NCBI GenBank assembly: GCA_041685495.1
Contig: JAWLFR010000003.1
Location: 5,470 to 69,469, forward strand
Origin: Bacteroidales bacterium
Lineage (GTDB): Bacteria; Bacteroidota; Bacteroidia; Bacteroidales; VadinHA17
Length of the DNA: 64,000 nucleotides
Reading direction: 5' to 3'
This document shows positions 51,710-59,748 of this stretch, piece after piece. The notes beneath the pieces were generated by a model, which worked only from the letters and a program-made list of their open reading frames with translations, had not been told where the DNA came from and searched no databases. Each line of letters starts with the position of its first letter. Positions within the stretch are counted from its first letter, which is position 1. The position numbers and the translations under genes were made by a program.

Positions 51710-52399
51710 TTACCTGTCGCCATTGGGAATGATATATTCTCCTTTCTCAACGAGTACTGCCTGGTAAAACGAGGCAAAAGTGGCCTTTACCCACATAGCG
51801 GCAATAAAGACACCAAAGAAAAGAACAATAAGGCCGCCAATAAAAATAAAGAAGGCCATTATTCCCATCCAGAAGATGCGCCACCCGTGACCCTTTGTTA
51901 ACCTCCAGCTCTCCTCAACAGCCTTTACAGGGTCAAGTTTCTTATCCATTACCAGGTAGGGGACAAATACCAGGCGGCACGCAAAAACAATGCCCGGTAT
52001 AATAAGGAAGAAGATCCCGAATGCTATGATGGCGCCTGTCAGAAGTGATGCCAGCACAACATTCAGGTAATTTTTAAACACATCAAACATATCTTTTACT
52101 TCAAAATCATCCTTGCGTGCTGCCTTGAGGTAAACAAACTTTGAACCATATTCCAGCGGCGATAAAACAAATAATGAATATGCAAAACCGAATACCTGCG
52201 CTGACAGAACAGCCAGCGCTATAAGTGCATCATGCCTCAGGTTCATTTCAGAAATACTGAAAAAGCTGGCTACAGGTATGCTTGCAACAATTATGATCAT
52301 AATGACAAGGAATAATGATATGAATTTATCAGACATTACCCGCCATCCATGACGATATGCAGAACCTGCACCCGGTGTTATGTTTTCTATTCTTTCCAT
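51710..52399 (-). CDS. DUF975-like integral membrane protein
   Basis: 229 aa with 4-5 TM helices. The pattern PLEYG...YLKAAR...F..D.F...K, then IIPGIVF...Y, then AV..S..LTKGHGW resembles DUF975. Confidence 0.55.
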   Translation of the reverse strand: MERIENITPGAGSAYRHGWRVMSDKFISLFLVIMIIIVASIPVASFFSISEMNLRHDALIALAVLSAQVFGFAYSLFVLSPLEYGSKFVYLKAARKDDFEVKDMFDVFKNYLNVVLASLLTGAIIAFGIFFLIIPGIVFACRLVFVPYLVMDKKLDPVKAVEESWRLTKGHGWRIFWMGIMAFFIFIGGLIVLFFGVFIAAMWVKATFASFYQAVLVEKGEYIIPNGDR

Positions 52400-52568
52400 G
52401 ATAATTTATATTTTGATTACAGCTGCTAATATAATCATGGAAAACAACCGGAATCAATCCGCCGAAAGTAGGATTTATCGTTTATCCTGCTATAGTTGGG
52501 AAAGCATATAAATAAATCTCTTGTCATAAATCAAGTATTTTCTTTCATTTGTATTAAATTAACATCCG

Positions 52569-53519
52569 ATGATCAGGCTGGCTGTAATACTTGTAATTAT
52601 TATCTCTGTATCAGGCGGGGCGTACAGCCTGGTAATCCTGTCGCGACTCAGAAAAATATACCGTATTGACTACCTGCATAGCTTTTTCTATTATAAACTG
52701 CTTCATTTTTTTTTCGGCATCTACGGTATCCTGGGTGGCATTGCGGTCCGTGATATCCTACTTAAGTATGACATAAAAAATGCGGAAATAGAATCCATTG
52801 CCATTATTATACCCTTTTTTGGGGTGCCTTTTATTATAGCAGCATGGTACCTTTTAATAAAAACATCACATGAGCTTATTAAGAGAAAGCTGCAACAGTC
52901 TGTCTCTATAGTATTCTTTGTTATAGCCACTGCATCTTTCCTTGTTTACGGCTTTGTTATCAGGTACCTGCCTGGCAGCACCACATTCAGCAGTGCTGAA
53001 CTGAACCTGCTGGTAAGAATTGTATTTTACAGCCTTGATTTGGCCGTCAAAATATATGTGATGGTGCTGCTGGTATCCTCGGCAATGCGCTGCAATAATA
53101 AAGATAAGAGGATACTGCTGGTACGTTTCGGATTTATCACAGCCGGACTGGCACTGCTGAGTGCTTTTGCATTGCATTTTGCTTTCCGCAATATCCTGGC
53201 AGGACCATATTTCCTGCTTCTGTATTTCGGATCGGACCTTGTGCTTGTATTCCTGATGAAGGCATACCTTGGAAAAAATGCGGATGAATTCAACCATATC
53301 ACAGACCCGCTGGAAAACCTGTACCAGAAATACGGCATATCAAAAAGGGAACGGGAAATTATAAGCGGGATATGCAAGGGAAAGACAAACCAGGAGATAG
53401 CCGATGAACTGTTCATCTCAGTTCAGACGGTAAAAGACCATACATATATTATTTTCAGAAAAGTAAATGTGAGAAACAGGGTACAGCTGGCTCATATCTT
53501 CTCAAAACATAATAAATGA
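52569..53519 (+). CDS. Membrane-embedded LuxR-family transcriptional regulator (7 predicted TM helices plus C-terminal HTH)
   Basis: 316 aa. I read seven hydrophobic segments in residues 1-235. The C-terminal GerE/LuxR HTH is ISKREREIISGICKGKTNQEIADELFISVQTVKDHTYIIFRKVNVRNRVQL. Confidence 0.75.
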   Translation: MIRLAVILVIIISVSGGAYSLVILSRLRKIYRIDYLHSFFYYKLLHFFFGIYGILGGIAVRDILLKYDIKNAEIESIAIIIPFFGVPFIIAAWYLLIKTSHELIKRKLQQSVSIVFFVIATASFLVYGFVIRYLPGSTTFSSAELNLLVRIVFYSLDLAVKIYVMVLLVSSAMRCNNKDKRILLVRFGFITAGLALLSAFALHFAFRNILAGPYFLLLYFGSDLVLVFLMKAYLGKNADEFNHITDPLENLYQKYGISKREREIISGICKGKTNQEIADELFISVQTVKDHTYIIFRKVNVRNRVQLAHIFSKHNK

Positions 53520-53562
53520 ACCGGAATAAGTAATAAGGCTTCAGCCTCTAATATCACTCACC

Positions 53563-54900
53563 ATGTCTGCCAAAAAACGTATTCTCAACATATTATTCTG
53601 GTCGGTGATATCAGCAGCATTTATCGGTCCGGGTACCATAACAACTGCCGCTCGCAGTGGCTCTGCCTATGGAACAGATCTTCTGTGGGCCCTTCTGTTT
53701 TCCACAGCAGCCTGCCTGGTATTACAGGAAGCGGCCTCAAGGATAAGTATTATCACAGGAAAGAACCTGGGACAGTCCATAGCCGGCTATTTCGGAACCC
53801 GCTCCTCCGGAACACCTGTTCTGATACTTGTGCTCGGAGCTATACTTGTCGGCACCGCAGCGTACGAAATGGGAAACCTTATGGGGGCGGTAGCCGGACT
53901 GCAGCTGGTATTTGATATCCCGGCCTGGATACTTGTACTGGCAACAGGTGTGTCTGCAGCTATACTGCTGAGCATTCCCTCGCTGAAAAAAGTTTCAACA
54001 ATACTCGGTATACTGGTAGTTATAATGGGTATATCTTTCCTTTTAACCGCCATCATGGTCAGACCTTCATTCACGAATATTGTAAGGGGCACTTTTATCC
54101 CTTCTTTCCCCGGCCCGGAAGCAGGAATGCTGGTGCTTGCACTTATAGGCACCACCATCGTTCCCTATAACCTCTTTCTGGGCTCCGGCCTCTCTTCATC
54201 CGGACAGTCATTAAAAGAAATGCGCTTTGGCCTTGGCACCGCCATTATCCTTGGTGGTATATTTTCCATGGCGGTGCTTATTGTGGGTTCCGCCGTTGAT
54301 GGTATATTCTCTTTTGACAGCCTGGCCGCTGTTCTGGAAACGGGCATAGGCCCTGCCGGCAAGTACCTGCTCGGCTTCGGCCTGTTTGCTGCAGGATTCA
54401 CCTCCGCAGTCACCGCACCCCTGGCTGCCGCCATTACACTGCGCAGCCTTTTCGGTCAGCCATACCCGGAAAAATGGAAAGCCGGAAGCTGGCGGTTCCG
54501 GTCGGGATGGTTAAGTGTACTGCTTGCCGGAGTGATCTTTGCATCACTTAATTTCAGGCCTGTTCCGGCTATAATAATTGCCCAGGCACTGAACGGATTT
54601 CTTCTGCCATTTATAAGCATCTTCCTGTTCATAATAATACGCAAAAGCATACAGAAAAGATCCCTGCCGGTCAGGATTTCCAGCTTCCTGATGCTGGCAG
54701 TAATCTTCATAACCTTAATCATAGGACTTAACAGCGCCGTGAAGGCCGTAATCAACCTGGTAAGTGAGGGATCGCCCGTCACAATGCCTGTTCAGATAAT
54801 AATAGTATGCTTCTCACTGGCCCTGGTAGTAATGGTGGGACTGGCCGGCAGGCAGATGTATAACAATCAGGATAATAATAACAGGATGAAAAATGCATAA
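53563..54900 (+). CDS. NRAMP-fold permease lacking the canonical metal-binding signature
   Basis: 445 aa with about 11 TM helices and overall NRAMP/MntH-like order. The TM1 motif is GPGT (nt 53626-53637) instead of DPGN. The TM6 motif is GTTIVPYN (VPY at nt 54160-54168) instead of GA-x-x-MPHN. Confidence 0.8.
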   Translation: MSAKKRILNILFWSVISAAFIGPGTITTAARSGSAYGTDLLWALLFSTAACLVLQEAASRISIITGKNLGQSIAGYFGTRSSGTPVLILVLGAILVGTAAYEMGNLMGAVAGLQLVFDIPAWILVLATGVSAAILLSIPSLKKVSTILGILVVIMGISFLLTAIMVRPSFTNIVRGTFIPSFPGPEAGMLVLALIGTTIVPYNLFLGSGLSSSGQSLKEMRFGLGTAIILGGIFSMAVLIVGSAVDGIFSFDSLAAVLETGIGPAGKYLLGFGLFAAGFTSAVTAPLAAAITLRSLFGQPYPEKWKAGSWRFRSGWLSVLLAGVIFASLNFRPVPAIIIAQALNGFLLPFISIFLFIIIRKSIQKRSLPVRISSFLMLAVIFITLIIGLNSAVKAVINLVSEGSPVTMPVQIIIVCFSLALVVMVGLAGRQMYNNQDNNNRMKNA

Positions 54901-57900
54901 GGAAGAGTATAAAATATTTGTAGATACCGGCGGCACCTTCACAGATTGTATAGGCATTGACGGCGGCGGCAGGCGCAAACGTCTCAAGGTGTTGAGCAAC
55001 AGCAGCCTGAGAGGCAGCATAACAGATATTGTTTCACCTGTGGAGTTTATTATAAAAGAATCATGGAAGCTGCCACGCGACCTTGTCAGGGGCTTCTCTT
55101 TCCGTATAATACCCGGATCATATTCAGGTGTTTTGGTCGAAAGCTATGATATTGAATCATCCCGCATCATACTGAGCAGACCGCTGCCTGAGATGCCTGA
55201 AAAGAACAGCAATTTTGAGATCACATCGAATGAAGAAGCGCCCATACTGGGGATACGCCTGCTGACTGAAACAGGTCTGGACGAAAAATTCCCGCCTTTA
55301 ACCCTGAAACTGGGGTCTACCACCGGAACAAATGCTTTACTGGAGAGAAAAGGAGCAAGGACATTATTTATAACAACAACCGGCTTTTCCGACCTGCTGG
55401 AGATAGGCAAGCAGTCGCGACCCGACATATTTGCCCTGAACGTAAAAAAACGATCCATGCTGTACAGCCATGTTATTGAGCTGGATGAGCGTATTGATGC
55501 AGACGGCAGGGTATTACATGCACCGGATATTGACAGGCTCCGCGCCATGCTACAAAAAGAAGAGGCCGCTTCATATGAATCAGTTGCCATCTGCCTTATG
55601 AACAGCTTCATTAACCCGGCACATGAGAACCTTGTAGTAAATGAATTAAAGGCCCTGGGCATAGAATATATCTCGGCTTCACATAATATATCCCCTCTGA
55701 TAAAAATCCAGAACCGCGCAGATACAACGGTTGTTAACGCATACCTTGCACCTGTCATCAATAAATATGTCAAAGGCATAAAAAAATATACAGGCAACAG
55801 CCAGTTCCAGGTTATGACCAGTGCGGGCGGACTGGTGCAGGCAGGACATTTCCTTCCAAAAGACAGCCTGCTCAGCGGCCCGGCCGGAGGTGTGGCAGGT
55901 GCACTGGCCATAGGAGAAAAGTCGGGTTACAGGAAACTTATAACATTTGATATGGGCGGCACCAGCACCGATGTTTCACGCGTTGACGGATCCTTTGATT
56001 ACAGGTATGAGCTGGAGGTGGGTGATGCCCGTATCAACAGTCCTGCCATTGCCATTGAAACAGTGGCAGCCGGAGGCGGTTCTGTCTGCGGCTTCGACGG
56101 GTATAAGCTGTTCGTTGGCCCGGAAAGTGCCGGTGCCTGGCCCGGACCAGCATGCTATGGAGCGGGTGGACCTCTGACCCTTACAGATGTTAACCTGCTG
56201 CTTGGCCGGCTTGATACGCGTCAGTTTGGTATACCTGTATTTATATCGCATGCAAAAGGGTGCCTTGATAAACTGGTAAGGGAGATAAAAGAGAAGACAG
56301 GTAAAGAAAGAAAGCCCAGGGATATTCTTCAGGGTTTTGCAGACATAGCCAATGAGCTAATGGCCGGGGCTATAAGGAAGATATCACTTGCAAGGGGATA
56401 TAAGCCTTCCGACTTTGCAATGGTAGCATTCGGCGGCGCCGGAGGCCTGCATGCATGTGATATTGCAGATATCCTGGATATTGGCACTGTCTTACTGCCC
56501 GGGGATGCAGGTCTGCTGAGTGCTTATGGTATAGGTAATGCTGCGGTGGAACGCTTCTCCGTCAAACAGATACTGAAAGACCTGGACCAGGTAAAGGATA
56601 GTCTGGACGAGCTCTTTGCCGGCTGTGAAGCTGAGGCCTCAAGACTGCTGCTTGAAGAAGGGTTCCCGGCTGAAAAGATAAAAACCCACCGCAAACTGGC
56701 TTTTATGCGCTACAGGGGCCAGGACAGCTGCCTGGAAATACCCTGCACCAATACAGAAAGTCTTGCCGGTGACTTTCGCAGCCTGTATAAAGACACATAC
56801 GGGCACAGTGTCAGCGGGCGCAGCATAGAAGTGGAATCCATCAGGGCCATTGTAAGGGTACATGAAGAGGACAGTATGGATGAGCAGCCCGTAACAGGCA
56901 GCCATAAACCGGAACCCTCACATATGGTTAATGACAGAACACCTGTATTCACATTCGATTCACTGGGACCGGGCGATTGTTTTGAGGGCACTGCACTGCT
57001 TACAGACCATTTTGCAACAACATGGCTGAAAAAAGGCTGGCACCTGAAAATTGATCAGGCCGGTACAGCTATTCTAAGCCGCCGGCAAAAAAAGAGTGTG
57101 AAAAAAGATCCCGGGGCACAGGAGACAGAGCTGGAATTATTTAGCAAGCGCTTTATGTCAATAGCAGAAAACATGGGTGCACTACTGCAACGCACGGCCC
57201 TTTCGGTAAACATTAAAGAGCGACTCGATTTTTCATGCGCCCTGCTGGATGCCGAAGGCAGGCTGGTGGCCAACGCACCTCATATACCAGTACACCTTGG
57301 CGGGCTGGGCGTATGTGTAAGAGAGTTGTTAAAACATTTCAGCTTCGAAGAAGGTGATACAATCGTTACCAATCACCCGAAATACGGTGGATCACACCTT
57401 CCTGATGTTACCATGGTGAGCCCGGTCTATTATAAAGGTGAACGTGTTGGCTTCGTGGTAAACAGGGCCCATCACAGCGAGATAGGAGGTATCAGTCCGG
57501 GTTCCATGCCTCCCGGTGCAGCCAGCCTGCAGGAAGAAGGGGTTGTAATAAGCCCTTTCTACCTTGTCAAAAAAGGAGTGCTCAACCGGGATGGTATGAG
57601 GGAAATACTTACTGATTATCCCTACCCCAGCCGTTCTGCAGAAGAAAATATGGCCGACCTTAATGCATCCCTGGCCGCCAATCATAACGGAAGCAAAGCA
57701 TTACTTACCCTTATCAGCCGGCATGGCAGGCAGACAGTTGTAGATTATATGGATCAGCTGCGGTCCTACGCCTCATCCCGAATGAAAGGCACACTGACAA
57801 AATTTACAGATGGTACATACAGGGCTGTTGAGTATCTGGATGATGGTTCCGTGATAAAAGCAGCTATTATGCTTGACGCAGGAAAATGCACCATTGATTT

Positions 57901-58651
57901 TACCGGCAGTGCGGATGTTAATGATTCAAATATGAATGCTACGGAAGCCATAGTCAAAAGCGTAACCATCTACGTTCTCCGTTTGCTCCTTGACGAGCCC
58001 ATACCCCTCAATGACGGGCTTATGGAACCTGTCAGAATAATACTCCCTCATGGAATGCTGAATCCTGTGTTTGTCGATAAGCCGGAACTATGCCCGGCCG
58101 TTGTGGGTGGAAACGTAGAAATAAGCCAGCGCCTTACTGACACCCTGCTCAAGGCTTTCGGCATTATAGCTGCCAGTCAGGGCACAATGAACAACACCCT
58201 GTTCGGCAATGATAATTTCGGCTATTATGAAACCGTGTGCGGGGGATGCGGGGCGGGAAAAGGATTCAGGGGCGCTGATGCCGTGCATCACCATATGACA
58301 AACACAAAAATTACCGATCCGGAGATCATGGAGCACAGATACCCGGTAAGACTTGAAGAATTCTCTGTACGCAGAGGATCGGGAGGTCAGGGCAGATGGA
58401 AGGGAGGTGACGGGGTCAGGCGCGTCATAAGATTCCTTGAACCGGTTAATCTGTCAGTCCTGACGCAGAGGCGCCTGAGCGGCCCTTATGGATGCTCGGG
58501 CGGGACAGACGGACTGCCCGGCTGCCAGAAGATAATAAAAAAGAATGGTGATATTGTTCATCTCGGCTCCGTGCAGAATATAAACCTAGATGCAGGCGAC
58601 ATCTTCGTAATGGAAACACCAGGTGGAGGAGGTTTCGGGAAAGAAAGCTGA
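54893..58651 (+). CDS. Fused hydantoinase/oxoprolinase (HyuA-HyuB), ATP-dependent 5-oxoprolinase type
   Basis: 1252 aa. The N-terminal hydantoinase_A part has VDTGGTFTD and DMGGTSTDV. The C-terminal hydantoinase_B part has [22 protein letters not shown] and TPGGGGFG. Its size and fusion match eukaryote-type OPLAH. The start overlaps the permease stop by 8 nt (ATGCATAA). Confidence 0.85.
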
Positions 58652-58824
58652 TTATAGGCCGGCTATAAACACATACTTATGACATTTATAAGCGGACCAG
58701 GTCCTGATTATGAAAAACATATAAAGGTTAGACGGGCAATAAACCCTTTGCCAGCGTCATCCGGGTATTGCTTTAACTATTCCTGTTTTTTTATCATCTT
58801 TGCAGTGTTAATAATTCAGATGAA

Positions 58825-59748
58825 ATGAGTATGAGCCTGATGAAACGATCTTATGAGGGTATGAAAAACAGTAACAAATTATACCTTGTTATCGGCGTAA
58901 TAATTCTTTTTGCGGCATCATGCCACAGGCCCCCGTCAAACAGGATAGAGGGAATTGATTTTTCTGATTGTGTCATCAGCGGTACCGGATCCACCTTTGA
59001 AATCGTCACTTTTAATATCAGGGCTTATCCGGTATATGGTGAAGAGACAGCCAAAACAGTAGCTGACCTGGTTAAGCAGATGGATGCTGATATTATTGCC
59101 CTGCAGGAGATAAGTAACGAAGAAGATTTTAATAACCTTGTTGACAGGCTTATAGGCTGGGAAGGGCTTTACTATCCTATTGATAACTCAATATGGAACC
59201 TGGCATACCTTTATAAGGTATCCGAAGTGAGCATTGATGAAACGAAAAGTAAAATAATCTTTGACGATGATTTCTGGTCCTTTCCACGCCCTCCTTTTGA
59301 AGTGCATGCCACCCATATACCTACGGGAACAGAGGCTATACTTATAAATAACCATTTCAAGTGTTGCGGTGGAAGCGATAACGAAGAGCGCCGCAGGAGT
59401 GCCACTGATTCACTGCATAAATACATATCGGATAATTACCCGGATGAGCCTGTGATCATCCTGGGCGATCTGAACGATGAGATTGATGGCGACAGCCGGG
59501 AAACAAATGTTTTCTGGACTATGGTCAATGACCCGGACAATTATACTTTCGCAGATATGAGCATAGCAAAGGGAAGCATGGCATGGTGGTCATACCCTTC
59601 ATGGCCCAGCCATATAGACCATATATGTGTTACTGATGAATTATTCGCCAGTATAGATACCACCATGGTGTTCAGACTGGATCAGTGCTATCCTGAATAC
59701 CCGGAAATGATATCAGACCACAGGCCTGTAATTCTGAGGCTGAAATAA
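58825..59748 (+). CDS. Endonuclease/exonuclease/phosphatase (EEP) family lipoprotein
   Basis: 307 aa with a lipobox (LFAASC). EEP motifs are IIALQE, ILGDLND and SDHRPV. The start codon is ambiguous, with several Met in the first 13 codons. Confidence 0.75.
   Translation: MSMSLMKRSYEGMKNSNKLYLVIGVIILFAASCHRPPSNRIEGIDFSDCVISGTGSTFEIVTFNIRAYPVYGEETAKTVADLVKQMDADIIALQEISNEEDFNNLVDRLIGWEGLYYPIDNSIWNLAYLYKVSEVSIDETKSKIIFDDDFWSFPRPPFEVHATHIPTGTEAILINNHFKCCGGSDNEERRRSATDSLHKYISDNYPDEPVIILGDLNDEIDGDSRETNVFWTMVNDPDNYTFADMSIAKGSMAWWSYPSWPSHIDHICVTDELFASIDTTMVFRLDQCYPEYPEMISDHRPVILRLK

Follow-up and report, generated by a model that had tools for sequence, protein, structure and literature searches.

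Introduction

An aspartate in the first transmembrane helix (TM1) has been described as universal among the SLC11 transporters, NRMT among them, and as indispensable to transport (PMC8806188). The Pfam family PF01566 (Nramp) also holds proteins that stand apart from these transporters. The 'orphan outgroup' of Cellier is described by the substituents 'YN' (helix 3) and 'V-Y' (helix 6) and by a set of four invariant glycines (PMC10606218; PMC9606685), and a 2026 preprint from the Gaudet laboratory distinguishes 'G-motif' groups, describing the clades that lack the metal motif as 'entirely uncharacterized'. Here we describe a permease of this kind, encoded in a stretch of 64,000 nucleotides (nt) from a Bacteroidales bacterium of the VadinHA17 lineage (GenBank assembly GCA_041685495.1, contig JAWLFR010000003.1, positions 5,470 to 69,469); this whole stretch is referred to below as the window. 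The permease gene overlaps a gene for a fused HyuA-HyuB enzyme (HyuAB) and, judging from motifs and gene context, the two proteins probably work together as a module that takes up and cleaves 5-oxo-L-proline (pyroglutamate) or a closely similar lactam.

The closest functional evidence comes from another branch of PF01566, represented by YcsG, PxpT and MumT, and the literature on this branch is divided. Deletion of ycsG makes 5-oxoproline unusable as a nitrogen source for Bacillus subtilis, and a pxpT deletion mutant of Corynebacterium glutamicum does not grow on 5-oxoproline but is complemented by pxpT in trans (PMC13274462). A metal-site-less PF01566 protein that serves 5-oxoproline uptake in an oxoprolinase operon is already published. 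PxpABC is the established prokaryotic 5-oxoprolinase (PMC13274462; also database annotation). Against this genetic evidence stand claims based on cellular manganese: YcsG overexpression raises cellular Mn in B. subtilis, where the protein was renamed MntG and described as a Mn2+ importer (PMC10448178), and an Acinetobacter baumannii strain deleted for mumT contains less Mn according to mass spectrometry with inductively coupled plasma and resists Mn toxicity (PMC5050338). An earlier, sequence-only reading of the window had invoked YcsG as an uncharacterised protein, a description that these studies contradict.

A permease without metal ligands and its fused partner enzyme

The permease gene (53563-54900) and the enzyme gene (54893-58651) both lie on the forward strand, as do all features of the window described below. 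The former is an open reading frame (ORF) of 445 amino acids (aa) that matches PF01566 with an E value of 4e-63 and belongs to the orphan outgroup/G-motif clade; the latter is an ORF of 1252 aa. The permease stop and the enzyme start overlap by 8 nt (54893-54900), because the junction reads ATGCATAA and the enzyme ATG lies within the permease gene. The ORFs, the junction and the Pfam matches thus agree with the arrangement that had been read from the letters. Membership of the two genes in one operon is well supported, and the overlap makes translational coupling plausible.

At the unwound segment of TM1 the canonical D-P-G-N is replaced by G22-P23-G24-T25 (GGT CCG GGT ACC, 53626-53637). The corresponding segment of TM6 reads G196-T-T-I-V-P-Y-N203 (54148-54171) in place of the canonical G-A-x-x-M-P-H, with V200-P201-Y202 encoded by GTT CCC TAT at 54160-54168. 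In phmmer alignments with solved Nramps the permease segment 'fIGPGTI' falls on 'yMDPGNF' of DraNramp and on 'fLDPGNI' of human NRAMP1, and in TM6 'LIGTTIVPYNLFLGS' falls on 'IIGATVMPHVIYLHS'. In DraNramp numbering, the permease has the substitutions D56G, N59T, A227T, M230V and H232Y. MAFFT alignments with Escherichia coli MntH and with Thermus and Collinsella Nramps placed the motifs in the same register. All four metal ligands are therefore substituted, together with the TM6b histidine. Neither the phmmer nor the MAFFT alignments contain offset copies of the ligands, so that Asp, Asn, Met and His are truly absent; the replacement of DPGN by GPGT and of MPH by VPY, first noticed in the sequence-only reading, holds at the level of both codons and alignments. 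The TM3 motif Y101-E102-M-G104-N105 (53863-53877) carries clade-specific Tyr, Asn and Gly residues next to one retained acidic residue, E102, and the TM10 glutamine Q341 is also retained.

An AlphaFold2 model of the permease, computed from a 92-sequence alignment, reached a predicted local distance difference test (pLDDT) score of 93.7 and a predicted template-modelling score (pTM) of 0.93. It contains 12 TM helices, of which TM1 is broken at residues 21-22 and TM6 at residues 199-200, that is, at both motif sites. The best Foldseek matches of this model are DraNramp structures (TM-score 0.76/0.86, 22% identity), followed by a Bacteroides fragilis Nramp, EleNRMT and NRAT; AdiC is also among the structural matches. 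The Nramp topology that had been recognized from the sequence is thus borne out by the model. The scores for the NCBIfam models MntH (NF001923, 106 bits against 430) and TIGR01197 (98 against 272) fall far short of the cut-offs, and only the broad model NF037982 was passed (68 bits against 50).

The last of the 12 helices, TM12 (54784-54897, aa 408-444 in the AlphaFold2 secondary structure), is found in the subclade of the window permease, here called window-type, and according to alignment and protein lengths is absent from the approximately 400-aa pxp-linked and haloarchaeal relatives. The C-terminus of window-type permeases should therefore be cytoplasmic, whereas those relatives end after TM11.

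The partner is a HyuA-HyuB fusion, since the Pfam domains Hydant_A_N, Hydantoinase_A and Hydantoinase_B follow each other in this order over its 1252 aa. The ATP-binding HyuA half (54893-57097) covers the first two domains; it has an N-terminal DTGGTFTD motif and a start that is conserved in homologues. The HyuB half (57098-58651) matches Hydantoinase_B with an E value of 2e-179. Residues 114-1250 align with the closest solved relative, 7hk5, a fused 1288-aa protein named 'N-methylhydantoinase' (E value 1.5e-122, 414 bits). The sequence-only reading had called the enzyme an OPLAH-type ATP-dependent 5-oxoprolinase. Its domain order agrees with that assignment; the substrate follows solely from genomic context, from which we infer that the enzyme acts on 5-oxoproline rather than on hydantoin or another lactam.

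A clade with its own conserved replacement motifs

A search of 1.84 billion cluster representatives returned 2966 relatives of the permease, 364 of them with E values below 1e-30, and motifs were inspected in those of the best 150 that were full-length (118 sequences). In these representatives, down to 33% identity, the TM1 sequence F-I-G-P-G-T-V-T-T and the TM6 sequence G-T-T-x-V-P-Y-N-L-F-L are near-invariant. Across 92 clade members G22, P23 and G24 are invariant, T25 is kept in at least 90%, the TM3 columns A100, Y101, G104, N105, G108 and G112 are invariant or near-invariant, and G97, V200 and Y202 are conserved likewise. Near-invariant replacement motifs of this kind indicate a selected alternative site. 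By the text descriptions given in the papers introduced above, the clade matches the orphan outgroup and G-motif Nramp-related proteins; our own tree of it is a neighbour-joining sketch. Public databases annotate its members as 'Nramp family divalent metal transporter' or 'manganese transport protein'.

Pairing with two non-homologous enzyme systems

To describe the genomic context, a scan with one genome per GTDB species yielded 80 loci with window-type permeases (44-90% identical), from Bacteroidales, Cytophagales, Chitinophagales, Balneolales, Chlorobiota, Acidobacteriota/Aminicenantes, Methylococcales and others. By tblastn with the window enzyme, hyuAB adjoins the permease gene in 61 of the 80; 43 loci have it downstream and 14 upstream, in both cases on the strand of the permease gene, and in four it is divergent. 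Among the 43 loci with the gene order of the window, the gap is about 35 nt or less in 33. Essentially every bacterial locus encodes the enzyme as one fused ORF. Flanking sequence is shorter than 3 kb on one side in 13 of the 19 unlinked loci, and the neighbours of the unlinked permeases, judged from their translations, are mutually unrelated (lookalikes of RmuC, LemA, LysA, PadR and cardiolipin synthase). Queries with E. coli PxpA, PxpB and PxpC matched none of the 80 loci, and genes of hydantoin pathways, such as those for a carbamoylase or creatinine deaminase, do not recur in them. The subfamily is thus strongly enriched beside genes of the oxoprolinase/hydantoinase family, as the sequence-only reading had led one to expect.

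Three details of the bacterial loci deserve mention. An apparent 1694-aa permease-HyuAB fusion in loci L006, L007 and L010 was rejected, as there is an in-frame TAA at the junction. In L033 (9600-13095) the hyuAB matches are fragmentary rather than one continuous ORF and may represent a pseudogene or an assembly error. In the Methylococcales loci L025, L028 and L076 the permeases are 53-55% identical to that of the window, and the adjoining fused hyuAB reaches only 36%/46% identity with the halves of the window enzyme, against approximately 48%/61% at other loci with similar permease identity; the Methylococcales enzyme may belong to a different subfamily or have a different substrate.

The pairing extends to haloarchaea. 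Megaplasmids of Haloferax, Haloarcula, Halocatena and Haladaptatus carry abutting Nramp, hyuA and hyuB genes, with the enzyme split in two. Directly 3' of hyuB in Halocatena and Haladaptatus lies a gene of the Asp/Glu racemase superfamily (L183 9444-10041; L184 9392-10041), annotated in one case as maleate cis-trans isomerase and in the other as aspartate/glutamate racemase family. These genes could handle D/L stereoisomers or point to a hydantoin-type substrate.

A sister subclade, 37-41% identical to the window permease and with identical TM1, TM3 and TM6 signatures (GPGT/VPY), has another partner. Three of four sister representatives that were looked up lie in or near LamB_YcsF/CT_C_D/CT_A_B operons, that is, pxpABC. 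Scanning metagenomes with a subclade alignment then yielded 80 loci, and in 71 of these pxpA(-pxpB-pxpC) lies directly downstream of the permease gene, with a gap of at most about 35 nt in 61 of the 71. Of the remaining loci, one (L145) carries fused hyuAB and six of the other eight are truncated. The median permease length is 408 aa in pxp-linked and 438 aa in hyu-linked loci.

The permeases of loci L145 (1892-6886) and L121 (5830-9581) are 62% identical, yet the L121 gene is followed by pxpABC and the L145 gene by a fused hyuAB, whose halves share 48%/63% identity with those of the window enzyme. This is a clean non-orthologous displacement of the enzyme in one operon slot. Likewise, the hyu-linked Haloferax permease has 55% identity with L121 and only 37% with the window permease. 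Because non-homologous ATP-dependent systems replace each other beside one permease lineage, the HyuAB partner would do the same job as PxpABC. PxpABC being a 5-oxoprolinase, the economical reading of this interchange is that both enzymes receive their common substrate, 5-oxoproline, from the permease.

Immediately upstream of the permease, approximately 27 pxp-type loci (e.g. L110 1483-2592; L090 5925-7001) encode a DUF2891 (PF11199) protein whose signal peptide is of the lipoprotein type; such a protein is also encoded beside the hyuAB-permease modules of L043, L055, L079 and L080. It is a third recurrent partner of both module types and may be an extracytoplasmic component. Apart from DUF2891, which is present in a subset, no neighbour recurs in the hyu-type loci.

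The YcsG branch

For comparison, YcsG-type genes were retrieved from the PxpA side, from Bacillus badius pPM400, a Lactiplantibacillus plasmid and a Klebsiella plasmid. Plasmid matches from Planococcus, Paraburkholderia, Caballeronia and Collinsella were set aside, since they either lacked pxp genes nearby or proved to be canonical Nramps with DPGN. In pPM400 the order is pxpA, the NRAMP gene and a hydro-lyase gene, with pxpB and a PxpC-type carboxyltransferase-family gene divergent; the gene order of the Klebsiella plasmid matches the mumTLUHC operon of A. baumannii.

YcsG-type proteins are 45-50% identical to each other and 15-19% to MntH, and they pass the PF01566 threshold. Their motifs are S-I-G-P-G-F in TM1 and G-G-T-V-G-G-Y in TM6, so that Asp, Asn, Met and His are all absent: the three permeases (L179 5774-7000; L180 2166-3365; L181 3739-4983) have Gly at the TM1 Asp site and G-G-Y in place of M-P-H. 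On this evidence their sequences give no support for a canonical metal site in proteins published as the Mn2+ importers MntG and MumT. The 'putative hydro-lyase' (YcsI/MumU) of these operons is a PF07286 D-glutamate cyclase (L179 7021-7812; L180 594-1382; L181 5762-6568). D-glutamate cyclase interconverts D-glutamate and 5-oxo-D-proline. Its presence fits a 5-oxoproline role for the YcsG-type operons, including the 'manganese and urea' mum operon of A. baumannii. Among the 160 GPGT-clade loci, neither D-glutamate cyclase nor the haloarchaeal racemase-family genes occur.

Sequence identity between the YcsG type and the window clade is 20-23%, and in the Foldseek match of the permease to the B. 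subtilis YcsG model 9a52_A it is 19%. The sequence-only reading had seen one permease family beside two unrelated oxoprolinase types and had taken YcsG as the second instance. The two-enzyme pattern stands, on firmer ground than in that reading, by virtue of the sister subclade; YcsG itself does not belong to the same subfamily.

Proposed function and alternative explanations

The proposal of the sequence-only reading that the permease imports 5-oxoproline or a related lactam rather than metals finds support in both computational checks, the alignment of the ligand positions and the survey of neighbouring genes. Under this proposal the permease would be a LeuT-fold secondary carrier. The TM1/TM6 pocket, which in canonical Nramps accommodates Mn2+ or Fe2+ and is here lined by glycines and by side chains that carry a hydroxyl or amide group (G22, G24, T25, Y101, N105, T197, T198, Y202, N203 and Q341), would bind a small polar organic anion such as 5-oxoproline and move it inward with H+ or Na+. 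By analogy with LeuT-fold amino-acid carriers, the backbone amides of the glycine-rich TM1 and the TM3 tyrosine could hold the carboxylate. Coupling to H+ through E102 and coupling to Na+ are both possible, and many clade members come from saline habitats. The co-transcribed cytoplasmic HyuAB would then release glutamate by ATP-driven opening of the lactam ring.

Several observations weigh against this proposal. The proportions 61/80 and 71/80 were each obtained from a set of loci picked by similarity to a single seed, and they describe two subclades rather than the whole clade. The nearest solved relative of the enzyme bears the name N-methylhydantoinase (7hk5), and the NCBIfam caprolactamase models match the enzyme, although below threshold only. 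Hydantoinases, N-methylhydantoinase, caprolactamase and acetone/acetophenone carboxylases are further members of the HyuA/HyuB family. A gene of the Asp/Glu/hydantoin-racemase family after hyuB in two haloarchaeal genera would fit hydantoin as well. Finally, Mn phenotypes have been reported for YcsG/MntG (PMC10448178) and MumT (PMC5050338), which are themselves devoid of the metal site.

Most of these points lead to the alternative that survives best, in which the module is the same and the substrate is another cyclic amide: hydantoin, N-methylhydantoin, 5-oxo-D-proline, 2-pyrrolidone or another lactam, with HyuAB as the matching ATP-dependent amidohydrolase. The name of the solved homologue, the partial caprolactamase similarity and the haloarchaeal racemase-family genes speak for it, and the divergent hyuAB of the Methylococcales, beside permeases of ordinary similarity, hints at substrate drift. 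We nevertheless consider it unlikely, as sister and near-identical permease lineages pair with PxpABC, whose sole established substrate is 5-oxoproline (PMC13274462), and as no hydantoin-pathway gene recurs in the window-type loci.

It is improbable that the permease carries Mn2+ or Mg2+ through a non-canonical site and so supplies a cofactor to the enzyme, as has been proposed for MumT and YcsG/MntG. The overexpression and deletion phenotypes of ycsG (PMC10448178) and mumT (PMC5050338) can be cited for this idea, as can the fact that the operon-linked YcsG-type proteins sampled here also lack the canonical site (MumT is so typed by inference, from operon architecture and low NRAMP identity), and E102 in TM3 and Q341 in TM10 are kept. 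However, all four ligands are gone from the window permease, among them the Asp described as universal and essential (PMC8806188), and the window clade shares only 20-23% identity with the YcsG type. A metal supplier that tracks two unrelated enzymes with only a substrate in common would be hard to explain. The Mn evidence for YcsG is moreover indirect, and its authors concede the conflict with the 5-oxoproline phenotype (PMC10448178). The locus itself offers no sign of metal regulation: an Rfam scan of 52000-59200 found no riboswitch and hence no M-box, a Pfam scan found no metal-responsive regulator, no metal-homeostasis gene flanks the pair within the window (ORF list and Pfam), and there is no MgtE-like fragment among the genes next to the permease.

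An exchanger of 5-oxoproline for glutamate, or an exporter of the enzyme product, is very improbable: many LeuT-fold/APC carriers are precursor/product antiporters, AdiC appears among the Foldseek matches and exchange would agree with the tight link between permease and enzyme, but no sequence feature favours it, and the loss of growth of the pxpT deletion mutant on external 5-oxoproline, from which glutamate is assimilated, argues for net uptake (PMC13274462).

The uptake of 5-oxoproline, as the favoured function of the window permease, can be extended to a broader idea. All metal-site-less PF01566 proteins, that is, the GPGT/VPY orphan outgroup together with the YcsG/PxpT 'G-motif 3' group, would be carriers of 5-oxoproline or related small lactam acids, and the SLC11 metal transporters would descend from such a carrier of organic anions, having acquired Asp, Asn, Met and His in the shared unwound TM1/TM6 pocket. 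We regard this as possible but doubtful. More speculative still is its corollary that the Mn phenotypes of MumT and MntG are indirect effects or reflect co-transport of metal with an organic anion.

Neighbouring genes in the window

Upstream of the pair, a gene for a 316-aa protein (52569-53519) stops 43 bp before the permease gene. The protein consists of a multi-pass membrane part followed by a C-terminal LuxR/GerE helix-turn-helix domain (Pfam GerE, E value 1e-17), and it may be a membrane-bound one-component local regulator. Its membership in the module is uncertain, and it is not conserved at that position in related loci. There are no pxp genes in the window. A scan for sigma-70 promoters and terminators in this Bacteroidales operon returned nothing interpretable.

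Significance

Our literature search found no assignment of the orphan GPGT/VPY clade to a 5-oxoproline role, no report of its pairing with fused HyuAB across bacterial phyla and haloarchaea, and none of the in-situ exchange of HyuAB for PxpABC beside the permease. Through this double linkage the orphan clade (PMC10606218; 2026 preprint) gains a concrete and cheaply testable candidate substrate, and the same argument gives a function to the widespread fused HyuAB of bacteria. If the proposed function is right, thousands of annotations would be corrected and a pyroglutamate-scavenging route would be added in Bacteroidota, Balneolales, Acidobacteriota and haloarchaea. It would also bear on how transition-metal transporters evolved from, or next to, a carrier of organic solutes. 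For the YcsG type, the rival claims of 5-oxoproline uptake and of Mn2+ import stand side by side, and all canonical metal ligands are missing from the YcsG-type sequences compared here.

Comparison with known systems

The window permease shares the LeuT fold, the unwound TM1 and TM6 and the PF01566 domain with the canonical SLC11/Nramp/MntH transporters (DraNramp, ScaDMT, EcoDMT, NRAMP1/DMT1), to which it is 20-24% identical; only the canonical proteins carry DPGN and A-x-x-MPH. The NRMTs (EleNRMT, NrmT) resemble it in being Nramp-related and outside the canonical clades, and by Foldseek EleNRMT has a TM-score of 0.76 and 21% identity to it. In NRMT, however, the TM1 Asp is kept and is essential for transport (PMC8806188), as the sequence-only reading had correctly stated for these Mg transporters, whereas the window permease has Gly at this site. 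NRMT genes are also often linked to M-box riboswitches or MgtE-like fragments, both of which are missing from the window locus.

The enzyme has the architecture of eukaryote-type OPLAH/OXP1 and other HyuA/HyuB enzymes, namely a single chain of approximately 1250-1290 aa with HyuA followed by HyuB, and ATP-binding motifs are present in it as well; the likeness is one of architecture.

Comparable modules fall into three groups. PxpT (Cg1142), YcsG/MntG and MumT, the 'G-motif 3' proteins, belong to PF01566 and, like the window permease, lack the TM1 Asp and Asn and the TM6 Met and His. They stand in an operon with an ATP-dependent 5-oxoprolinase, as the window permease does with HyuAB, a putative 5-oxoprolinase. 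They differ in their partners, PxpABC and D-glutamate cyclase as opposed to HyuAB, in having 11 rather than 12 TM helices, and in their motifs, GPGF and GGTVGGY as opposed to GPGT and TTxVPY. The haloarchaeal operons (e.g. on Haloferax volcanii pHV4) have the order of the window, permease, HyuA and HyuB, and the TM1 motif GPGT; their permeases, 37-39% identical to that of the window, are closer to the pxp-linked subclade and have VGY rather than VPY in TM6, and three of the four genera have a CopG-type regulator upstream. The pxp-linked subclade (e.g. P0239 and L090-L172), like the window permease, is operonic with an established or putative 5-oxoprolinase. Here the partner is PxpABC, the permeases have approximately 400 aa and 11 TM helices, and TM6b reads NLFLH where window-type permeases have NLFLG.

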